A DNA stretch of 64,000 bases from Escherichia coli (GTDB taxonomy: Bacteria > Pseudomonadota > Gammaproteobacteria > Enterobacterales > Enterobacteriaceae): NCBI RefSeq assembly GCF_003334305.1, contig NZ_QOWS01000004.1; one strand, written 5' to 3'. The notes under the pieces are model-generated. The model ran no database searches and had not been told where the DNA came from. It worked only from the letters and a program-made list of their open reading frames with translations. Both the position numbers and the translations under genes were made by a program. Positions 4,675-26,352 of this stretch are shown one piece after another (positions within the stretch are counted from its first letter, which is position 1; each line of letters begins with the position of its first letter).

Positions 4675-5815
<1,141 letters not shown>

Positions 5816-6313
5816 TCAAGTGTTTTGTAGAAATTGTTGCCACAAGGTCTGCAATGCATACGCAGTAGCCTGACGACGCACCGCATCACGGTCGCCGCTG
5901 AAGCATTCCCGCCGGGTAATGCCTTCACCGCGGGCAGTGGCAAAAGCAAACCAGACGGTGCCGACAGGCTTCTCTTCACTGCCGCCATCCGGCCCGGCGA
6001 TACCACTAATAGACACGGCATAATCAGCACGAGCCGCTTTCAGTGCGCCTATCACCATTTCCACCACGACGGGTTCACTCACCGCGCCATGCTGCGCCAG
6101 CGTCTCTTCGCGTACGCCGATCATCTGCGCTTTGGCTTCGTTACTGTAGGTGACAAATCCGCGTTCAAACCAGGCGGAGCTACCGGCAATATCGGTAATC
6201 ACTTTCGCTACCCAACCACCGGTACAAGACTCGGCAGTTGTTACGGTTGCGCCACGGGCTTTCAGCGCCTGCCCAACCTGTTCACTTAACTGCATCAGTT
6301 CACTGTCAGTCAT
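5816..6313 (-). CDS. pncC: NMN amidohydrolase PncC (CinA C-terminal domain family)
   Basis: ORF track 5816..6316; protein MTDSELMQLSEQVGQALKARGATVTTAESCTGGW; position between recA and mltB. Confidence 0.9.
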   Translation of the reverse strand: MTDSELMQLSEQVGQALKARGATVTTAESCTGGWVAKVITDIAGSSAWFERGFVTYSNEAKAQMIGVREETLAQHGAVSEPVVVEMVIGALKAARADYAVSISGIAGPDGGSEEKPVGTVWFAFATARGEGITRRECFSGDRDAVRRQATAYALQTLWQQFLQNT

Positions 6314-6457
6314 CACAACCTCTGTCAGTCAAAAATTTATGCCGGACAAGATAGCACTTTCGTCAGGAAGATGGTGTTGGCGTTGCAATTTTACGAGGAG
6401 GATTCAGAAAAAAGCTGATTAGCCAGAGGGAAGCTCACGCCCCCCTCTTGCAAATAG

Positions 6458-7543
6458 TTACTGCACGCGCGCCAGCGCCACGGCTTGTCCTAACTGCCAG
6501 ACCGCCATTGCGTAATGGGTGCTGTGGTTATAACGGGTAATGGTGTAGAAGTTCGGCAGACCGTACCAGTACTGGTAACCGGTACCGACATCCAGACGCA
6601 GCAGGCTGGCTTGTTGATGGTTGCCCAGCGGCTGCTGTGGCGTTAAACCTGCCGTGGCAAGCTGCGAAATGCTGTACCTGGTTTTGAAGCCATTTGGCAA
6701 GCCAGGAGCCTGACCGTTTGCCATTACCGCGACCTGATCGCCTTTCACCCAGCCGTGCGCTTTGAAATAGTTCGCCACGCTACCGATCGCATCAACCGGA
6801 TCCCACAGGTTGATATGCCCGTCGCCGCTGAAATCTACCGCATATTGTTTGTAAGACGACGGCATAAACTGTCCGTAGCCCATCGCCCCGGCAAAGGAAC
6901 CTTTCAGATTGAGCGGATCGTCCTGCTCGTCGCGCGCCATCAACAGGAAGGTTTCCAGCTCGCCAGAGAAATACTCCGCGCGGCGTGGGTAGTTAAATGA
7001 CAGCGTTGCCAGCGCATCGAGGATGCGAGTTTTCCCCATCACGCGCCCCCAGCGGGTTTCAACGCCGATAATCCCGACGATAATTTCCGGCGGTACGCCA
7101 TACACCTGCCACGCGCGATTCAACGCATCTTCATACTGATTCCAGAAAACCACACCGTTCTGCACGTTGTCCGGCGTAATAAATTTTTTGCGATAACGGA
7201 GCCATGCGCCGTTCGGACCTGATGGCGGTTTCACCGATGTGGTTGGTGCCTGGTTATCCATCAGCCGCAGTACCGAATCCAGACGTTTCGCCTGGGAGAG
7301 AATTTCCTGCAACTGCTGACGATCGAAACCGTGTTTGTTCACCATTTTGTCGATGAACTGCTGGGCATTCGGGTTATTAGCGAAATCGCCGCCCATCTGC
7401 ATCACATTGTGCTGCGGCTCAAGCAGGAAGCCGCCAGACGGCGTTCCGGTGGTCGTTTCAGTCTCAGTAGGTTTTGGCTTGCTGCTACAGGCGGCAAGCA
7501 ACACAAAAAGGGGAAGCAATGTTACATAACGACGCTTGAACAT
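6458..7543 (-). CDS. mltB: Membrane-bound lytic murein transglycosylase B (lipoprotein)
   Basis: ORF track 6458..7648; start taken at MFKRRYVTLLPLFVLLAACSS (lipobox LAAC) giving ~361 aa. Confidence 0.9.
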   Translation of the reverse strand: MFKRRYVTLLPLFVLLAACSSKPKPTETETTTGTPSGGFLLEPQHNVMQMGGDFANNPNAQQFIDKMVNKHGFDRQQLQEILSQAKRLDSVLRLMDNQAPTTSVKPPSGPNGAWLRYRKKFITPDNVQNGVVFWNQYEDALNRAWQVYGVPPEIIVGIIGVETRWGRVMGKTRILDALATLSFNYPRRAEYFSGELETFLLMARDEQDDPLNLKGSFAGAMGYGQFMPSSYKQYAVDFSGDGHINLWDPVDAIGSVANYFKAHGWVKGDQVAVMANGQAPGLPNGFKTRYSISQLATAGLTPQQPLGNHQQASLLRLDVGTGYQYWYGLPNFYTITRYNHSTHYAMAVWQLGQAVALARVQ

Positions 7544-7780
7544 GAGGGGTCCATTTAACAGATTCAACCAGGGGCAAGTATGGTAAAGCATCACGCCCCA
7601 CACAAGGAAGCGGTAGTCACTGCCCGATACGGACTTTACATAACTCAACTCATTCCCCTCGCTATCCTTTTACTCAAACTTTCAAATTAAAATATTTATC
7701 TTTCATTTTGAGATCAAAATAACACTTTTAAATCTTTCAATCTGATTAGATTAGGTTGCCGTTTGGTAATAAAACAATAA

Positions 7781-9318
<1,538 letters not shown>

Positions 9319-21589: not shown

Positions 21590-24480
<2,891 letters not shown>

Positions 24481-24488
24481 GTAACCGT

Positions 24489-24568
24489 GCCGGATGCGGC
24501 GTGAACGCCTTATCCGGCCTACATAGTTCGTGCGACATGTAGGCCCGATAAGCGCAGCGCATCGGGCA
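24489..24568. repeat. Pair of inverted REP units (BIME) downstream of ascB
   Basis: gccggatgcggcgtgaacgccttatccggcctaca and tgtaggcccgataagcgcagcgcatcgggca. Confidence 0.85.
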
Positions 24569-24593
24569 ATCTGGGGTTTGGCATCAGTCAAAA

Positions 24594-25013
24594 TCAAAGA
24601 AACCATTCCGGCTTAACGCCAAATCGGGCTGAAAGTGCCTTAATGTGGGATATTGTCAGGGATCGTTGTCCAGACAAAATCTGACTGACCAGGGATTTAG
24701 AGCCGATTTCGTTCTTCAAATCCGCATAGGTCAGATTATGTTGATCAATCAACGTGCGAAGTAACGCCACGCCAACCGGCATTGCCGCAACGGCTTTGTC
24801 GAACTCTGCAAACTTTTCGTTGTTGTTTTCATACTCTGCAATGCGGCTCGCCAGAAAGTCGATAAGTGGATTGGTGTCATCTTCTTCAATCAAATATTCG
24901 ACCAGTTCCAGTGCTTCACGATAATCATCTTCTGAGTCACTGCCTCCCAGAAAGGGGACTGCATTGACCAGTTCTCTTGTTGCTTTAACAGCGCGTGCAG
25001 CATTAGCAGTCAT
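24594..25013 (-). CDS. HigA-family antitoxin-like HTH (Xre/Cro-type) protein, no adjacent toxin gene
   Basis: ORF track 24594..25079 (TTG start); ATG at 25011-25013 gives 140 aa MTANAARAVKATRELVNAVPFLGG...GSKSLVSQILSGQRSLTISHIKALSARFGVKPEWFL; by eye about half the residues match my recollection of E. coli HigA (YgjM). Confidence 0.7.
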   Translation of the reverse strand: MTANAARAVKATRELVNAVPFLGGSDSEDDYREALELVEYLIEEDDTNPLIDFLASRIAEYENNNEKFAEFDKAVAAMPVGVALLRTLIDQHNLTYADLKNEIGSKSLVSQILSGQRSLTISHIKALSARFGVKPEWFL

Positions 25014-25032
25014 TCTTTGTTCTCTCTGTAGT

Positions 25033-25055
25033 AACGTGACGTCTGTCTGCACGTA
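25033..25055. promoter_or_regulatory. Inverted repeat ACGTG-N11-CACGT upstream of the HigA-like gene (candidate autoregulatory operator)
   Basis: aacgtgacgtctgtctgcacgtaa between the ORF B stop and the HigA-like ATG. Confidence 0.35.
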
Positions 25056-25083
25056 ATCCCCCTCATAGCCACTCTGCAAAAAG

Positions 25084-25857
25084 TCAGTTCTGGTTCACCC
25101 CATAAAGCACATCCCCCTTTATCAAGCAACGCTGCGTCTGCGCCAGATCTTCCGTTTGCGGGTCGCGCCCGGCGATGGGTTTGAGGACGAGTTTACGGTT
25201 GGGGGTATAAGTAAAACGCGTGAGCGCGGGATAGCTTAACTTGCCAAACCAGCCGTGAACACGCTGCCATTTGGCGTCTTTTACCTGATACAGACTGGTT
25301 ATCCAGTAACCAGAATTAAACTGCATATCCAGCAATTGCGTGTGACCATTGCCTTGCAAATCCAGCAAATCATCTACGCCAGTTTTGCTTGCGGTGTAGA
25401 ATCCCCTGGGTTCAAAGACACAGGGACGGCCTTCGCGCGTGAACGTCATAAGAATTAAATGTGCATAAGGAGCCAGACCATTACCGGTACTTGGTAACCA
25501 GATAACCAGATCCTGAATGCCGTTACGATCAAGATCGGCGCGATAGAGTTGCCCTTTGCCCGCTATGTTTGCCAGCATACCCACAGGCACAGACCAGGAT
25601 TTACCGGCGCGATCTTTACCGTTCAATTGCCATTCACTATCATCATTTGGCATCTTTTCAAGCGTCACGCCAGCAACGCCCACTTTTCTAAAATGCCAGG
25701 TTTGCTCGGCATCATAAGGCATGGTCAGGAGAGGTTTCAGCGCCCGCTTTTGCGCGTATTCGCTGTCACTCATTGGCAGATATTCGGTAAAGCTGGTGGC
25801 CTGTGCAGGCAGCACTAAGCTCAATAAAAAAGCGCACATCCCTGTTCTGATATTCAT
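25084..25857 (-). CDS. Sec-exported protein of unknown function with two DxDxNG-like (FG-GAP/calcium-loop-like) motifs
   Basis: ORF track 257 aa; signal peptide MNIRTGMCAFLLSLVLPAQA|TS; motifs ADLDRNGIQDLVIW and DDLLDLQGNGHTQLL; ATG 24 nt downstream of hycI stop, same strand. Confidence 0.65.
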   Translation of the reverse strand: MNIRTGMCAFLLSLVLPAQATSFTEYLPMSDSEYAQKRALKPLLTMPYDAEQTWHFRKVGVAGVTLEKMPNDDSEWQLNGKDRAGKSWSVPVGMLANIAGKGQLYRADLDRNGIQDLVIWLPSTGNGLAPYAHLILMTFTREGRPCVFEPRGFYTASKTGVDDLLDLQGNGHTQLLDMQFNSGYWITSLYQVKDAKWQRVHGWFGKLSYPALTRFTYTPNRKLVLKPIAGRDPQTEDLAQTQRCLIKGDVLYGVNQN

Positions 25858-25881
25858 TTCGCTGAATTCCCTGATGGAGAA

Positions 25882-26352
25882 TTATTCTTCTTCCACCGCT
25901 AACTGCGCGAAGCCGCCATTCCCTTCCCAGCCTTCCAGTCGTTGATAAACGGTTTCAACCGCATCTTTAATCGGCTGGGTCATCGGGTAGTAAAAGCCGA
26001 CGATATCCGGCTGGATGCCGAGGAAAATCACTTCGCCAATATCTTCTTTCAACTGGTCGATAAGGTAGTTCAACGGCATGTTATGGGTAGTCATCATAAA
26101 CATCTCGGCGATATCATCCGGGTCGATGATGCGGATCTCGCCGGGGTTTAGCCCCATATCAGTGGCGTCGACAATCAGCAGTCGCGTAGGGCGCAGTTCA
26201 CGGATGGCGACGATGTCGTTTTCCGGTGCACTACCGCCGTCAATCACCACCCAGTTACCTTTCGGCGCGGCGGCGCACTTTTCCGCCAGCAGCGGGCCTG
26301 CGCCATCATCGCCCATCATGCTATTGCCAACACAGAGTAAAACGTCAGTCAC
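25882..26352 (-). CDS. hycI: Hydrogenase 3 large-subunit maturation endopeptidase HycI
   Basis: ORF track 156 aa [25 protein letters not shown]. Confidence 0.95.
   Translation of the reverse strand: MTDVLLCVGNSMMGDDGAGPLLAEKCAAAPKGNWVVIDGGSAPENDIVAIRELRPTRLLIVDATDMGLNPGEIRIIDPDDIAEMFMMTTHNMPLNYLIDQLKEDIGEVIFLGIQPDIVGFYYPMTQPIKDAVETVYQRLEGWEGNGGFAQLAVEEE

Follow-up and report, generated by a model that had tools for sequence, protein, structure and literature searches.

The chromosomal HigB-HigA pair of Escherichia coli K-12 (YgjN-YgjM; 5IFG, 6JQ4) is the closest described relative of one of the two genes considered here. It is encoded toxin-first with a 4-bp overlap, and its antitoxin has a helical, toxin-binding part at the N-terminus and an HTH_3 domain at the C-terminus. 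The other gene has weaker likenesses to two groups of proteins: the FG-GAP/VCBS repeat proteins (PF13517, PF01839; integrin alpha propellers), for which a 7-bladed propeller is typical, and PliI, XAC2610 and Tsi1, which represent one fold class of peptidoglycan-hydrolase inhibitors (PMC10933484). Both genes lie between ascB and hycI in a stretch of 64,000 nucleotides of E. coli DNA, the whole of which we refer to as the window.

The ORF list and the raw sequence place the ascB stop codon of the window at 24478-24480 and the hycI stop codon at 25882-25884, with 1401 bp between them. In K-12 MG1655, ascB ends at 2842414 and hycI starts at 2842573, leaving a spacer of only 158 bp, and the claim of the first-pass annotation that the ascB-hycI interval holds extra DNA without a counterpart in K-12 is therefore correct. 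Two intact minus-strand ORFs fill the interval, one at 24594-25013 (139 aa), which is higA, and one at 25084-25857 (257 aa), which we term ORF B. The entire ascB-hycI stretch is 100% identical in E. coli strain H15, where PGAP calls the two genes WP_000126294.1 and WP_001026447.1. A BIME-like REP pair follows ascB (approximately 24487-24566, no strand assigned); it contains a 16-nt inverted repeat (I1), has a sub-threshold match to the REP-derived naRNA4 and aligns with the K-12 spacer. Judged by this alignment, the REP pair is common to K-12 and lies outside the variable DNA. The first 108 bases of this ascB-hycI stretch are present in a median of 37 copies per genome. Sequence comparison also indicates that both ORFs are real genes and not chance ORFs, because the HTH product has HigA homology at E=2.5e-35, and because ORF B has orthologues in four genera and a dN/dS of 0.15-0.3. 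Both genes had been expected to be intact in close homologues, and not degenerate or frameshifted, and this is what we found.

We propose, with a probability of about 0.8, that the interval is a composite of an old gene, ORF B, and an inserted and decayed higBA remnant. The interval would then hold two elements that are unrelated to each other and have decayed to different extents. In an ancestral Escherichia, a higBA module paralogous to K-12 ygjN-ygjM would have become inserted between the REP pair and ORF B, and in the lineage of the window a later deletion of ~400 bp would have removed higB and most of the spacer upstream of it, with higA left intact. The interval had previously been described as a two-gene islet. 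Two genes absent from K-12 are indeed present, but the description is only partly right because the histories of the two genes are separate, ORF B being ancestral and higA coming from the inserted module.

Alignments with K-12, N427 and E69, together with base composition, assign the remnant of the higBA toxin-antitoxin module to 24588-25083 on the minus strand. Homology to K-12 and E69 ends at GGCATCAG (24580-24587) and restarts at the ORF B stop codon, and the G+C content of the remnant is 46-47% as against 53% for the window. Residues 9-138 of the product of higA (24594-25013) match residues 8-136 of the solved E. coli HigA (5IFG_B) at the E-value given above, and its C-terminal 55 residues match Pfam HTH_3 (E=1.1e-8). 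It was thus rightly placed in the HigA family by the first-pass annotation, and it shares the architecture of K-12 HigA, with a toxin-binding helical part followed by HTH_3, as a paralogue encoded at another chromosomal site. A 161-aa reading of the HTH ORF from a TTG start was rejected, since HigA homology starts near the ATG at 25013.

The missing toxin gene is present in sister strains. N427, RM12581, E02 and 5283 carry a 312-bp higB, whose product matches 5IFG_A (E=4.5e-22) and whose stop codon overlaps the higA ATG as ATGA, so that these strains share the toxin-first order and 4-bp overlap of K-12 HigB-HigA. The full ORF B-higB-higA form is found in N427 and others. In the window, alignment with the same four strains shows higB reduced to its last 26 bp (25014-25039, minus strand), and the adjoining segment (25040-25083, minus strand) aligns, as a diverged remnant, with the far-upstream end of the higB-ORF B spacer and forms the right side of the ~400 bp deletion that took higB and most of the upstream spacer. 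Because only 26 bp of higB remain, window higA is, on this alignment, an orphan antitoxin and not a toxin-antitoxin system; compared with K-12 HigB-HigA, the window lacks the toxin gene and most of the upstream spacer and would have no functioning pair. The same deletion junction occurs in E24377A and UPEC-774U, and a second type of deletion occurs in ST131. Comparison of the two types indicates that higB was lost through at least two independent deletions. The absence of the toxin gene had been missed in the first-pass annotation; higB lies between the two ORFs in 748 genomes.

Matches to the PADLOC models for PD-Lambda-2 were also obtained. HigB of the sister strains matches PD-Lambda-2_A (E=1e-15), and HigA matches the first ~115 of the 402 positions in PD-Lambda-2_B (E=2.4e-14). 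PD-Lambda-2 is a three-gene system, and membership of this locus was rejected, the B component being far too short and no third gene being present at the locus. Going by these alignments, the resemblance reflects shared HigBA ancestry.

A site scan of the minus strand between ORF B and higA found nothing promoter-like, so higA would be transcribed only by read-through from ORF B and hyc. A promoter-like hexamer pair and a putative operator were read by eye in the spacer upstream of higB in N427, in a part that is deleted in the window. As neither a cognate toxin nor an operator is left at the locus, higA would be an inert remnant or else encode a free antitoxin able to neutralise incoming HigB (anti-addiction). 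Anti-addiction has been proposed in reviews as a role for orphan antitoxins (PMC7354431). It is in our view possible, if somewhat doubtful, that selection maintains the orphan HigA as a working protein, acting in this manner against the HigB of an incoming plasmid or phage or as a rewired transcription factor. The orphan state is a frequent form of the locus, with ~1417 of the 2509 higA-positive genomes lacking higB through at least two independent deletions. The identical protein, WP_000126294.1, is found in strains with and without higB (dN 0-0.006), and 3 of 21 positions at the window-type junction have diverged, which points to an old deletion. Because HigA is invariant in ~1400 higB-less genomes while the junction has substitutions, we suggest that higA has been kept by selection rather than persisting through passive decay, and such retention would favour an anti-addiction or regulatory role over an inert remnant. 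However, decay is viable only if the toxin goes before the antitoxin, and orphan antitoxins are thus expected by default, and the scan result near higA also argues against a working protein. The higA locus represents a natural decay series, comprising the full module, the toxin deleted in two independent ways and everything deleted, and this series could be used for testing whether anti-addiction keeps orphan antitoxins.

We determined the distribution of the genes in 5426 complete E. coli genomes. higA was present in 2509 of these, higB in 1092 and ORF B in 1463. The junction of higB with ORF B was present in the 748 genomes noted above, higBA without ORF B in ~344, including strain 5283, and ORF B cut to a 181-bp stub in ~837. 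ORF B is missing from K-12 and from about half of the complete E. coli genomes searched, and the exact ORF B protein occurs on at least 1000 contigs. The locus is thus a common and fairly ordinary polymorphism of E. coli, some form of it being present in approximately half of the complete genomes, and the pair does not mark an unusual strain.

The same survey bears on the idea of a single islet, in which an HTH protein and an exported protein, for example a regulator and its target, were acquired horizontally by non-K-12 strains as one unit. The genes do adjoin each other in one orientation, K-12 has neither, and 1331 genomes carry both. Yet each gene is also found alone, so the linkage of the pair in other genomes does not hold generally: ORF B is not accompanied by higA in E. 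coli E69, in other Escherichia species, in Salmonella or in Phytobacter, and higBA occurs without ORF B in the ~344 genomes that include strain 5283. The undeleted form has higB and a spacer between the two genes, K-12 retains the end-fragments of ORF B and not higA, the G+C contents of ORF B and higA differ (50.3% and 46.4%), and the homology of the HTH protein marks it as a genuine HigA. A single acquisition is consequently extremely improbable.

In the composite reading, ORF B is the old resident gene. It immediately follows hycI in Escherichia, Salmonella, Klebsiella and Phytobacter. Contigs of other genomes were scanned with a profile made from an 11-sequence alignment, and ORF B was found 3' of hycI in E. 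whittamii, Escherichia sp., E. albertii, Phytobacter and K. spallanzanii. In E. coli E69 the order is hycI-ORF B-ascB without any higA, and in Salmonella it is hycI-ORF B-hydN-hypF. The gap from hycI to ORF B is 24-27 nt across Escherichia and Salmonella (26 nt in Salmonella). On this comparison of gene order, ORF B is ancestral at the position after hycI. The K-12 spacer reads ...CATCAG-AGCTGGTTCACCCCATCAAGAACATCCC-TGTCCTGATT..., which is the 3' end of ORF B joined to its own 5' end, and the first 26 nt of this scar are identical to the UPEC-774U allele. Since the spacer retains the first and last ORF B codons, K-12 has deleted ORF B; the event would have been an internal deletion between two short ACATCCC repeats. 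Alignment shows that K-12 keeps these end-fragments of ORF B and zero trace of higA. The ORF B genes of E. coli appear to fall into two deeply diverged allele classes.

The product of ORF B (25084-25857, minus strand) is predicted to be an exported, FG-GAP/VCBS-like all-beta protein. Its signal peptide was read from the sequence as MNIRTGMCAFLLSLVLPAQA, with cleavage before TS, and by inspection the charged n-region, hydrophobic core and AQA cleavage motif of the N-terminus are conserved in the family. Searches of Pfam, NCBIfam, PADLOC, PHROGs and PDB sequences gave no match, and none was found in Pfam even at E<=10. The literature searches, with hycI and higA, STM2844, XAC2610 and FG-GAP, and CarG and lysozyme as terms, returned nothing on ORF B; CarG is presumably similar to PliI. 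That the 257-aa product has a signal peptide and lacks characterised relatives, as described earlier, was borne out. The family to which ORF B belongs comprises at least 489 clusters when grouped at 50% identity and has no Pfam model, and AFDB labels the relatives of ORF B VCBS ('VCBS repeat-containing') or FG-GAP. ORF B also provides a way into this sizeable, uncharacterised family, for which there is now a confident model and no functional annotation.

We modelled the structure from an alignment of 78 sequences built by exhaustive HMM search. The AF2 model has a pLDDT of 92.6 and is all-beta, with ~16 strands that would make roughly 4 blades; an earlier model from an 11-sequence alignment (pLDDT 55) was discarded in favour of this one. 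Among the 78 relatives, 26 match FG-GAP_3 at E<=0.1 and 4 match the FG-GAP, FG-GAP_3 or VCBS Pfam models at E<=0.001. The segment Y-R-A-D-L-D-R-N-G-I-Q-D-L-V of ORF B fits the FG-GAP calcium-binding loop, and the ORF B profile aligns to three calcium loops of integrin alpha-V. Within this segment the motif D108-L-D-R-N-G-I-Q-D116 is nearly invariant in the family, D108, D110, G113 and D116 each being at least 90% conserved among the 78 sequences, and one blade is accordingly predicted to carry a canonical DxDxNGxxD calcium loop. In contrast to FG-GAP/VCBS proteins, ORF B has no Pfam match of its own and a single clear calcium loop, and the ~16 strands of its model are too few for the 7-bladed propeller. 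We suggest that ORF B would be exported by a Sec-type route, form a compact, all-beta periplasmic domain that resembles a partial propeller of FG-GAP-like blades, and act by binding a partner rather than by catalysis.

Substitution rates were used to assess constraint on ORF B. Its dN/dS is 0.15-0.30, both within E. coli and between genera, with values of 0.15-0.2 between Escherichia, Salmonella and Klebsiella, where dS is saturating. ORF B is under purifying selection and is most probably a working gene. It evolves fast, its dN being ~10 times that of hycI. Positive selection was rejected, as the sliding-window dN/dS never exceeded 0.5, and in the variable central part dS is saturated and dN is not in excess. 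An alternative is that ORF B is a functionless, C-terminally truncated relic of a longer VCBS-like protein, and that the whole interval is decaying. Enterobacterial ORF B proteins are without the ~100-residue C-terminal domain found in most of the wider family, and could as a result be partly disabled; the gene is deleted in K-12, cut to the stub in ~837 genomes, frameshifted in the E. albertii type strain and present as fragments in many Salmonella, and the adjoining higBA is visibly decaying. The missing domain, the Salmonella fragments and the half of E. coli without the gene also speak against a function of ORF B. Set against this are the dN/dS of 0.15-0.2 between three genera, which indicates long-term constraint on the short form, the intact frame in 1463 genomes, and the retention of the calcium loop and other family motifs in a confidently folded model. 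We therefore consider a relic improbable.

As to what that function could be, the ORF B model resembles PliI-Ah (3OD9), X-Tfi XAC2610 (4QTQ) and Tsi1 (3VPJ) weakly and with low scores, and like these proteins ORF B would be periplasmic, by its predicted signal peptide. A profile-sequence search reached XAC2610 at E=1.3, and Foldseek against the PDB gave no significant match to the model. ORF B differs from these inhibitors in being ~2 times the size of PliI and Tsi1 and in having no lipobox, whereas XAC2610 is a lipoprotein. Tsi1 and XAC2610 are immunity proteins with an adjacent cognate effector, whereas the neighbours of ORF B are hycI and higA. Inspection of ORF B for an inhibitory loop identified none. 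By analogy with PliI, XAC2610 and Tsi1, ORF B could work on its own in the periplasm, where it would inhibit or bind a peptidoglycan hydrolase; we regard this assignment as tentative and on balance unlikely. No conserved neighbour of the family was found in 40 loci; this, the fast evolution and the common presence/absence polymorphism are consistent with a dispensable stand-alone inhibitor. The Foldseek result and the lack of a linked candidate hydrolase gene count against an inhibitor. A bolder and rather less probable proposal is that ORF B founds an unrecognised family of stand-alone, periplasmic, calcium-binding, FG-GAP-like inhibitors of peptidoglycan hydrolases. In enteric bacteria the protein would be induced together with hyc under anaerobic conditions with formate, as in the gut, and the two E. 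coli allele classes would reflect an arms race. Under that proposal it would represent a new class of lysozyme inhibitor or orphan immunity protein, distantly related to PliI, XAC2610 and Tsi1.

The position of ORF B also suggests how it is expressed. The spacer between the hycI stop codon and the ORF B start (25858-25881, minus strand) is 24 nt long and contains a Shine-Dalgarno-like AGGGA 10 nt before the ORF B ATG, and a site scan of it found no terminator-like site. Because ORF B is on the same strand as hycI, separated from it by 24 nt and with no terminator-like hairpin between them, it is most likely the last gene of the formate-induced hyc operon transcript. Work on formate hydrogenlyase has been done nearly entirely in K-12, where the gene after hycI is deleted; many other E. 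coli have ORF B there, as do some genomes of Salmonella, Klebsiella and Phytobacter. Should ORF B be co-transcribed with hyc, it would be a part of the anaerobic formate regulon that has never been studied. Current understanding is not overturned by these findings.

This position raised the further idea that ORF B is a tenth component of formate hydrogenlyase/hydrogenase-3, a periplasmic accessory or maturation-linked protein overlooked in K-12. The 24-27 nt gap without a terminator in Escherichia and Salmonella and the retention of the position across four genera are in keeping with it, as is a 35%-identical homologue in Thiolinea disciformis located 95 bp downstream of hypF-hypC-hypD-hypE on the same strand. 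This adjacency prompted the idea of a family-wide link to hydrogenase, which was rejected because 68 environmental (metagenome) loci (448 kb) contained no hyc or hyp homologue near a family member (0/68) and no conserved neighbour of any kind. The closer long-form relatives adjoin menF, or sit between fruBKA and ugd-arnT, and relatives in other Enterobacterales are thus found away from hydrogenase genes. The hydrogenase-3 catalytic module and its maturation are cytoplasmic, whereas ORF B is predicted to be exported, and K-12, like about half of the complete E. coli genomes in the survey, has no ORF B. Taken with the break in gene order in Klebsiella described below, this makes a hydrogenase component very unlikely.

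The corresponding spot in Klebsiella is taken by another toxin-antitoxin module, parDE, together with symE. In K. spallanzanii, symE separates hycI from ORF B, which breaks their linkage and speaks against co-transcription.

The window carries two genes between ascB and hycI. The ascB gene ends at 24480, on the strand opposite to hycI, and just after it lies a REP pair (~24487-24566). An HTH-encoding ORF, higA (24594-25013, 139 aa), and ORF B (25084-25857, 257 aa) follow on the minus strand, as does hycI, which ends at 25882. The ORF table and raw sequence agree with the first-pass annotation on both gene ends and both ORFs. The two genes are also missing from K-12 as it had claimed, since the MG1655 spacer between ascB and hycI is 158 bp, compared with 1401 bp in the window. 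This 1401-bp interval is 100% identical to that of E. coli H15, for which the NCBI annotation likewise contains both genes.

Searches of Pfam, NCBIfam, PADLOC, PHROGs and PDB sequences gave no match to ORF B. In a word-indexed search, full-length relatives were limited to Escherichia, Salmonella (71% identity) and Klebsiella spallanzanii (63%), apart from a few distant metagenomic proteins. The gene order is hycI - ORF B - hydN - hypF in Salmonella, with a 26-nt gap after hycI; hycI - symE - ORF B - parDE - symE - ascB in K. spallanzanii; and hycI - ORF B - ascB in Phytobacter diazotrophicus and in E. coli E69, which has neither higA nor higB and only 110 bp from ORF B to ascB. ORF B also lies immediately 3' of hycI in E. 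whittamii, Escherichia sp. and E. albertii. These gene orders show that ORF B is ancestral at the site. The pair is accordingly not the single islet first described: by sequence comparison, the toxin-antitoxin module entered later, between ORF B and the REP pair, a history that agrees with its lower G+C content (46.4%, versus 50.3% for ORF B). In K. spallanzanii, the ORF B orthologue lies among other toxin-antitoxin genes, a parDE pair and two symE toxin genes (~5400-7800 of locus L007; also L019), and toxin-antitoxin modules seem to have settled repeatedly at the end of the hyc operon.

After the REP pair, the K-12 spacer contains AGCTGGTTCACCCCATCAAGAACATCCC, corresponding to the 3' end of ORF B with its stop codon (…LDGVNQ); 26 nt of this 3' fragment are identical to the allele of strain UPEC-774U. 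The fragment is fused straight to TGTCCTGATT…, coding the first codons (…IRTGM), and the join sits in a short ACATCCC repeat found at both ends of the gene. This spacer is the deletion scar of ORF B. The reported absence from K-12 is thus correct as to gene content, and for ORF B it reflects deletion in the K-12 lineage. The ORF B copy of the E. albertii type strain is frameshifted, and many Salmonella entries in AFDB are incomplete, at 94-231 aa, suggesting that the gene has often become a pseudogene in that genus. AFDB A0A633HV03 (Salmonella enterica, 343 aa) is named 'hydrogenase 3 maturation protease', and its alignment to ORF B spans 188 residues, which makes it an apparent read-through fusion of HycI with ORF B. 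A contig labelled 'MAG: Collinsella sp.' (JAIJJM010000690.1) consists over its whole 1647 bp of the hycI end, ORF B, higA and the ascB end, with 91-100% amino acid identity to E. coli, and almost certainly represents E. coli contamination of an actinobacterial MAG bin.

The 139-aa product has an HTH_3 domain at its C-terminus and aligns over essentially its full length to HigA, the E. coli K-12 antitoxin of known structure (5IFG_B, E=2.5e-35), confirming the family originally proposed. In many of 5426 complete E. coli genomes the two ORFs are separated by a further ~400 bases that carry the annotation of a HigB-family toxin. This 103-aa protein of sister strains matches solved HigB (5IFG_A, E=4.5e-22), and higB precedes higA, the usual toxin-first arrangement, with 4 bp shared between the two genes. 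Alignment with higB-bearing strains identified the last 26 bp of higB at 25014-25039 on the minus strand of the window; the rest of the gene and most of its 173-bp upstream spacer have been removed by a ~400-bp deletion. To the right of the junction, 44 bases (25040-25083) preserve the far end of the spacer in diverged form. This higA is an orphan, a routine member of a well-known family, and an orphan antitoxin is an expected intermediate because module decay has to lose the toxin first. In strain N427 the higB upstream spacer, read by eye, contains a putative promoter-like pair (TTGTGA-17-TATAGT) and a nearby imperfect palindrome. A scan of the window found neither a minus-strand promoter-like site nor a terminator-like hairpin between ORF B and higA, so higA transcription in this strain would have to start upstream. 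ORF B would be co-transcribed with hyc, and higA likewise by read-through. PADLOC PD-Lambda-2 models match HigB of N427 (L001 3033-3341, E=1e-15) and, over the first 115 positions of the B component, HigA of the window (E=2.4e-14); we rejected these matches as a sign of a defence system here and attribute them to shared ancestry.

Among the 5426 complete genomes, higA is present in 2509 and higB is complete in 1092, with higB cut to its last 33 bp in 581 more; about 1417 genomes have higA without higB. ORF B is at least 80% complete in 1463 genomes and partial in 837 others, mostly as the 181-bp 5' stub seen in ST131. The higB-ORF B junction of the full three-gene form occurs in 748 genomes and higBA without ORF B in about 344 (for example strain 5283). 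Genomes that match the window interval over at least 80% of its length number 1331, those with the higB insert included. By subtraction rather than direct count, the window form (ORF B and higA, no higB) is estimated at roughly 580 genomes, about 11%. The aligned sequences indicate that the toxin was lost independently at least twice, the window and ST131 types representing separate losses. The window-type junction is common to strains with ORF B alleles up to 10% apart and itself differs at 3 of 21 positions between strains, so this deletion is old or has spread by recombination. The HigA protein WP_000126294.1 is identical in strains with and without higB. With HigA so perfectly conserved in ~1400 genomes that lack the toxin, a retained role such as the anti-addiction proposed for orphan antitoxins (PMC7354431) is possible, if on the unlikely side.

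By inspection, the N-terminus of ORF B (MNIRTGMCAFLLSLVLPAQA/TS) has the charged n-region, hydrophobic core and AxA site of a typical Sec signal peptide, in line with the signal peptide noted in the first-pass annotation, and the protein is predicted to be exported. Equivalent N-termini occur across the family. The first codon (25855-25857) is ATG in the window and TTG in most other alleles (the same codon in loci L010-L014). PGAP starts TTG alleles at Met7 (251 aa), which cuts off the charged n-region, and these models are probably 6 codons too short. With a dN/dS of 0.15-0.30 in comparisons within E. coli and between genera alike, ORF B is under purifying selection; no local dN/dS >0.5 was found along the gene, and its dN is ~10x that of hycI in the same strains. 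Nucleotide differences among E. coli alleles reach 15% and are concentrated in codons ~70-165; the alleles are mosaic, with synonymous divergence saturated over codons ~106-165. Across the central segment the alleles form two deeply diverged classes, between which dS over codons ~106-165 exceeds 1, as large as between genera; UPEC-774U is an example of a mosaic, and E. albertii has one of the two classes as well. This pattern could reflect balancing selection, introgression or recombination.

The conserved position of ORF B after hycI in four genera, across a gap of 24-27 nt with no terminator, would be consistent with a functional link to the hydrogenase system, as would a 326-aa homologue in Thiolinea disciformis (35% identity) that follows hypF-hypC-hypD-hypE on the same strand at a distance of 95 bp (region L025 3050-8909). 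This was the only non-enterobacterial homologue found beside hydrogenase maturation genes, and the adjacency may be fortuitous or a relic of ancient synteny in Gammaproteobacteria. However, hyc/hyp homologues were found at none of 68 metagenome loci with family members (448 kb scanned), and clustering the neighbours of 40 loci gave no conserved partner gene, indicating that the linkage to hyc is positional and does not amount to evidence of a role in hydrogen metabolism. Closer long-form relatives elsewhere lie beside menF or between fruBKA and ugd-arnT, and ORF B is missing from K-12 and about half of complete E. coli genomes. We therefore consider a functional link improbable. Its position would probably still give ORF B anaerobic, formate-induced expression.

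An exhaustive profile search of 1.84 billion representatives recovered 489 clusters of the ORF B family. Most members are 330-360 aa, making the enterobacterial protein a short form without a ~100-residue C-terminal domain. An AlphaFold2 model from a 78-sequence alignment confidently predicts almost all beta strands (pLDDT 92.6, pTM 0.88), and the best-conserved motif, Y-R-A-D108-L-D-R-N-G-I-Q-D116-L-V, fits an FG-GAP calcium loop, suggesting that ORF B may bind calcium. FG-GAP_3 matches at E<=0.1 were present in 26 of the 78 relatives, and the family profile aligned to three calcium loops of integrin alpha-V without significance (E=0.1). The family is already loosely labelled VCBS/FG-GAP: relatives are named "VCBS repeat-containing" in AFDB, and "periplasmic or exported protein" in E. 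coli 55989 and Salmonella. The exact ORF B sequence occurs on at least 1000 contigs, a widespread uncharacterised "hypothetical protein", and literature searches returned no account of its place at the hyc end, the K-12 deletion scar or the short-form architecture. PliI, XAC2610 and Tsi1 have a propeller-like topology in common and inhibit peptidoglycan hydrolases by a loop put into the active site (PMC10933484). The likeness of ORF B to these proteins is a lead rather than a demonstration, as ordinary beta-propellers score nearly as well. Our best guess, by analogy and with a probability of about 0.2, is that ORF B may work on its own in the periplasm, binding or inhibiting a peptidoglycan hydrolase, which would fit its fold neighbours, lack of operon partners, fast evolution and dispensability. 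Pli-type lysozyme inhibitors are likewise stand-alone genes. ORF B would be of greater interest if it were such an inhibitor.

On the ascB side, a sub-threshold Rfam naRNA4 match (40 bits, gathering score 59.5) falls at 24475-24519 in the REP element, as expected of REP-derived sequence. IS621 targets REP sequences; in E. coli E24377A an IS621 (IS110-family) transposase gene adjoins higA in place of the window's REP pair and ascB (L014 1-766). A DUF4259-family gene adjoins higA in ST131 strain MB1341 (L004 2017-2454), with hydN-hypF beyond it, and in strains E02 and MS1737 (L010 and L011, 91-519). The asc operon is missing in all three strains, indicating that the ascGFB region is itself variable.
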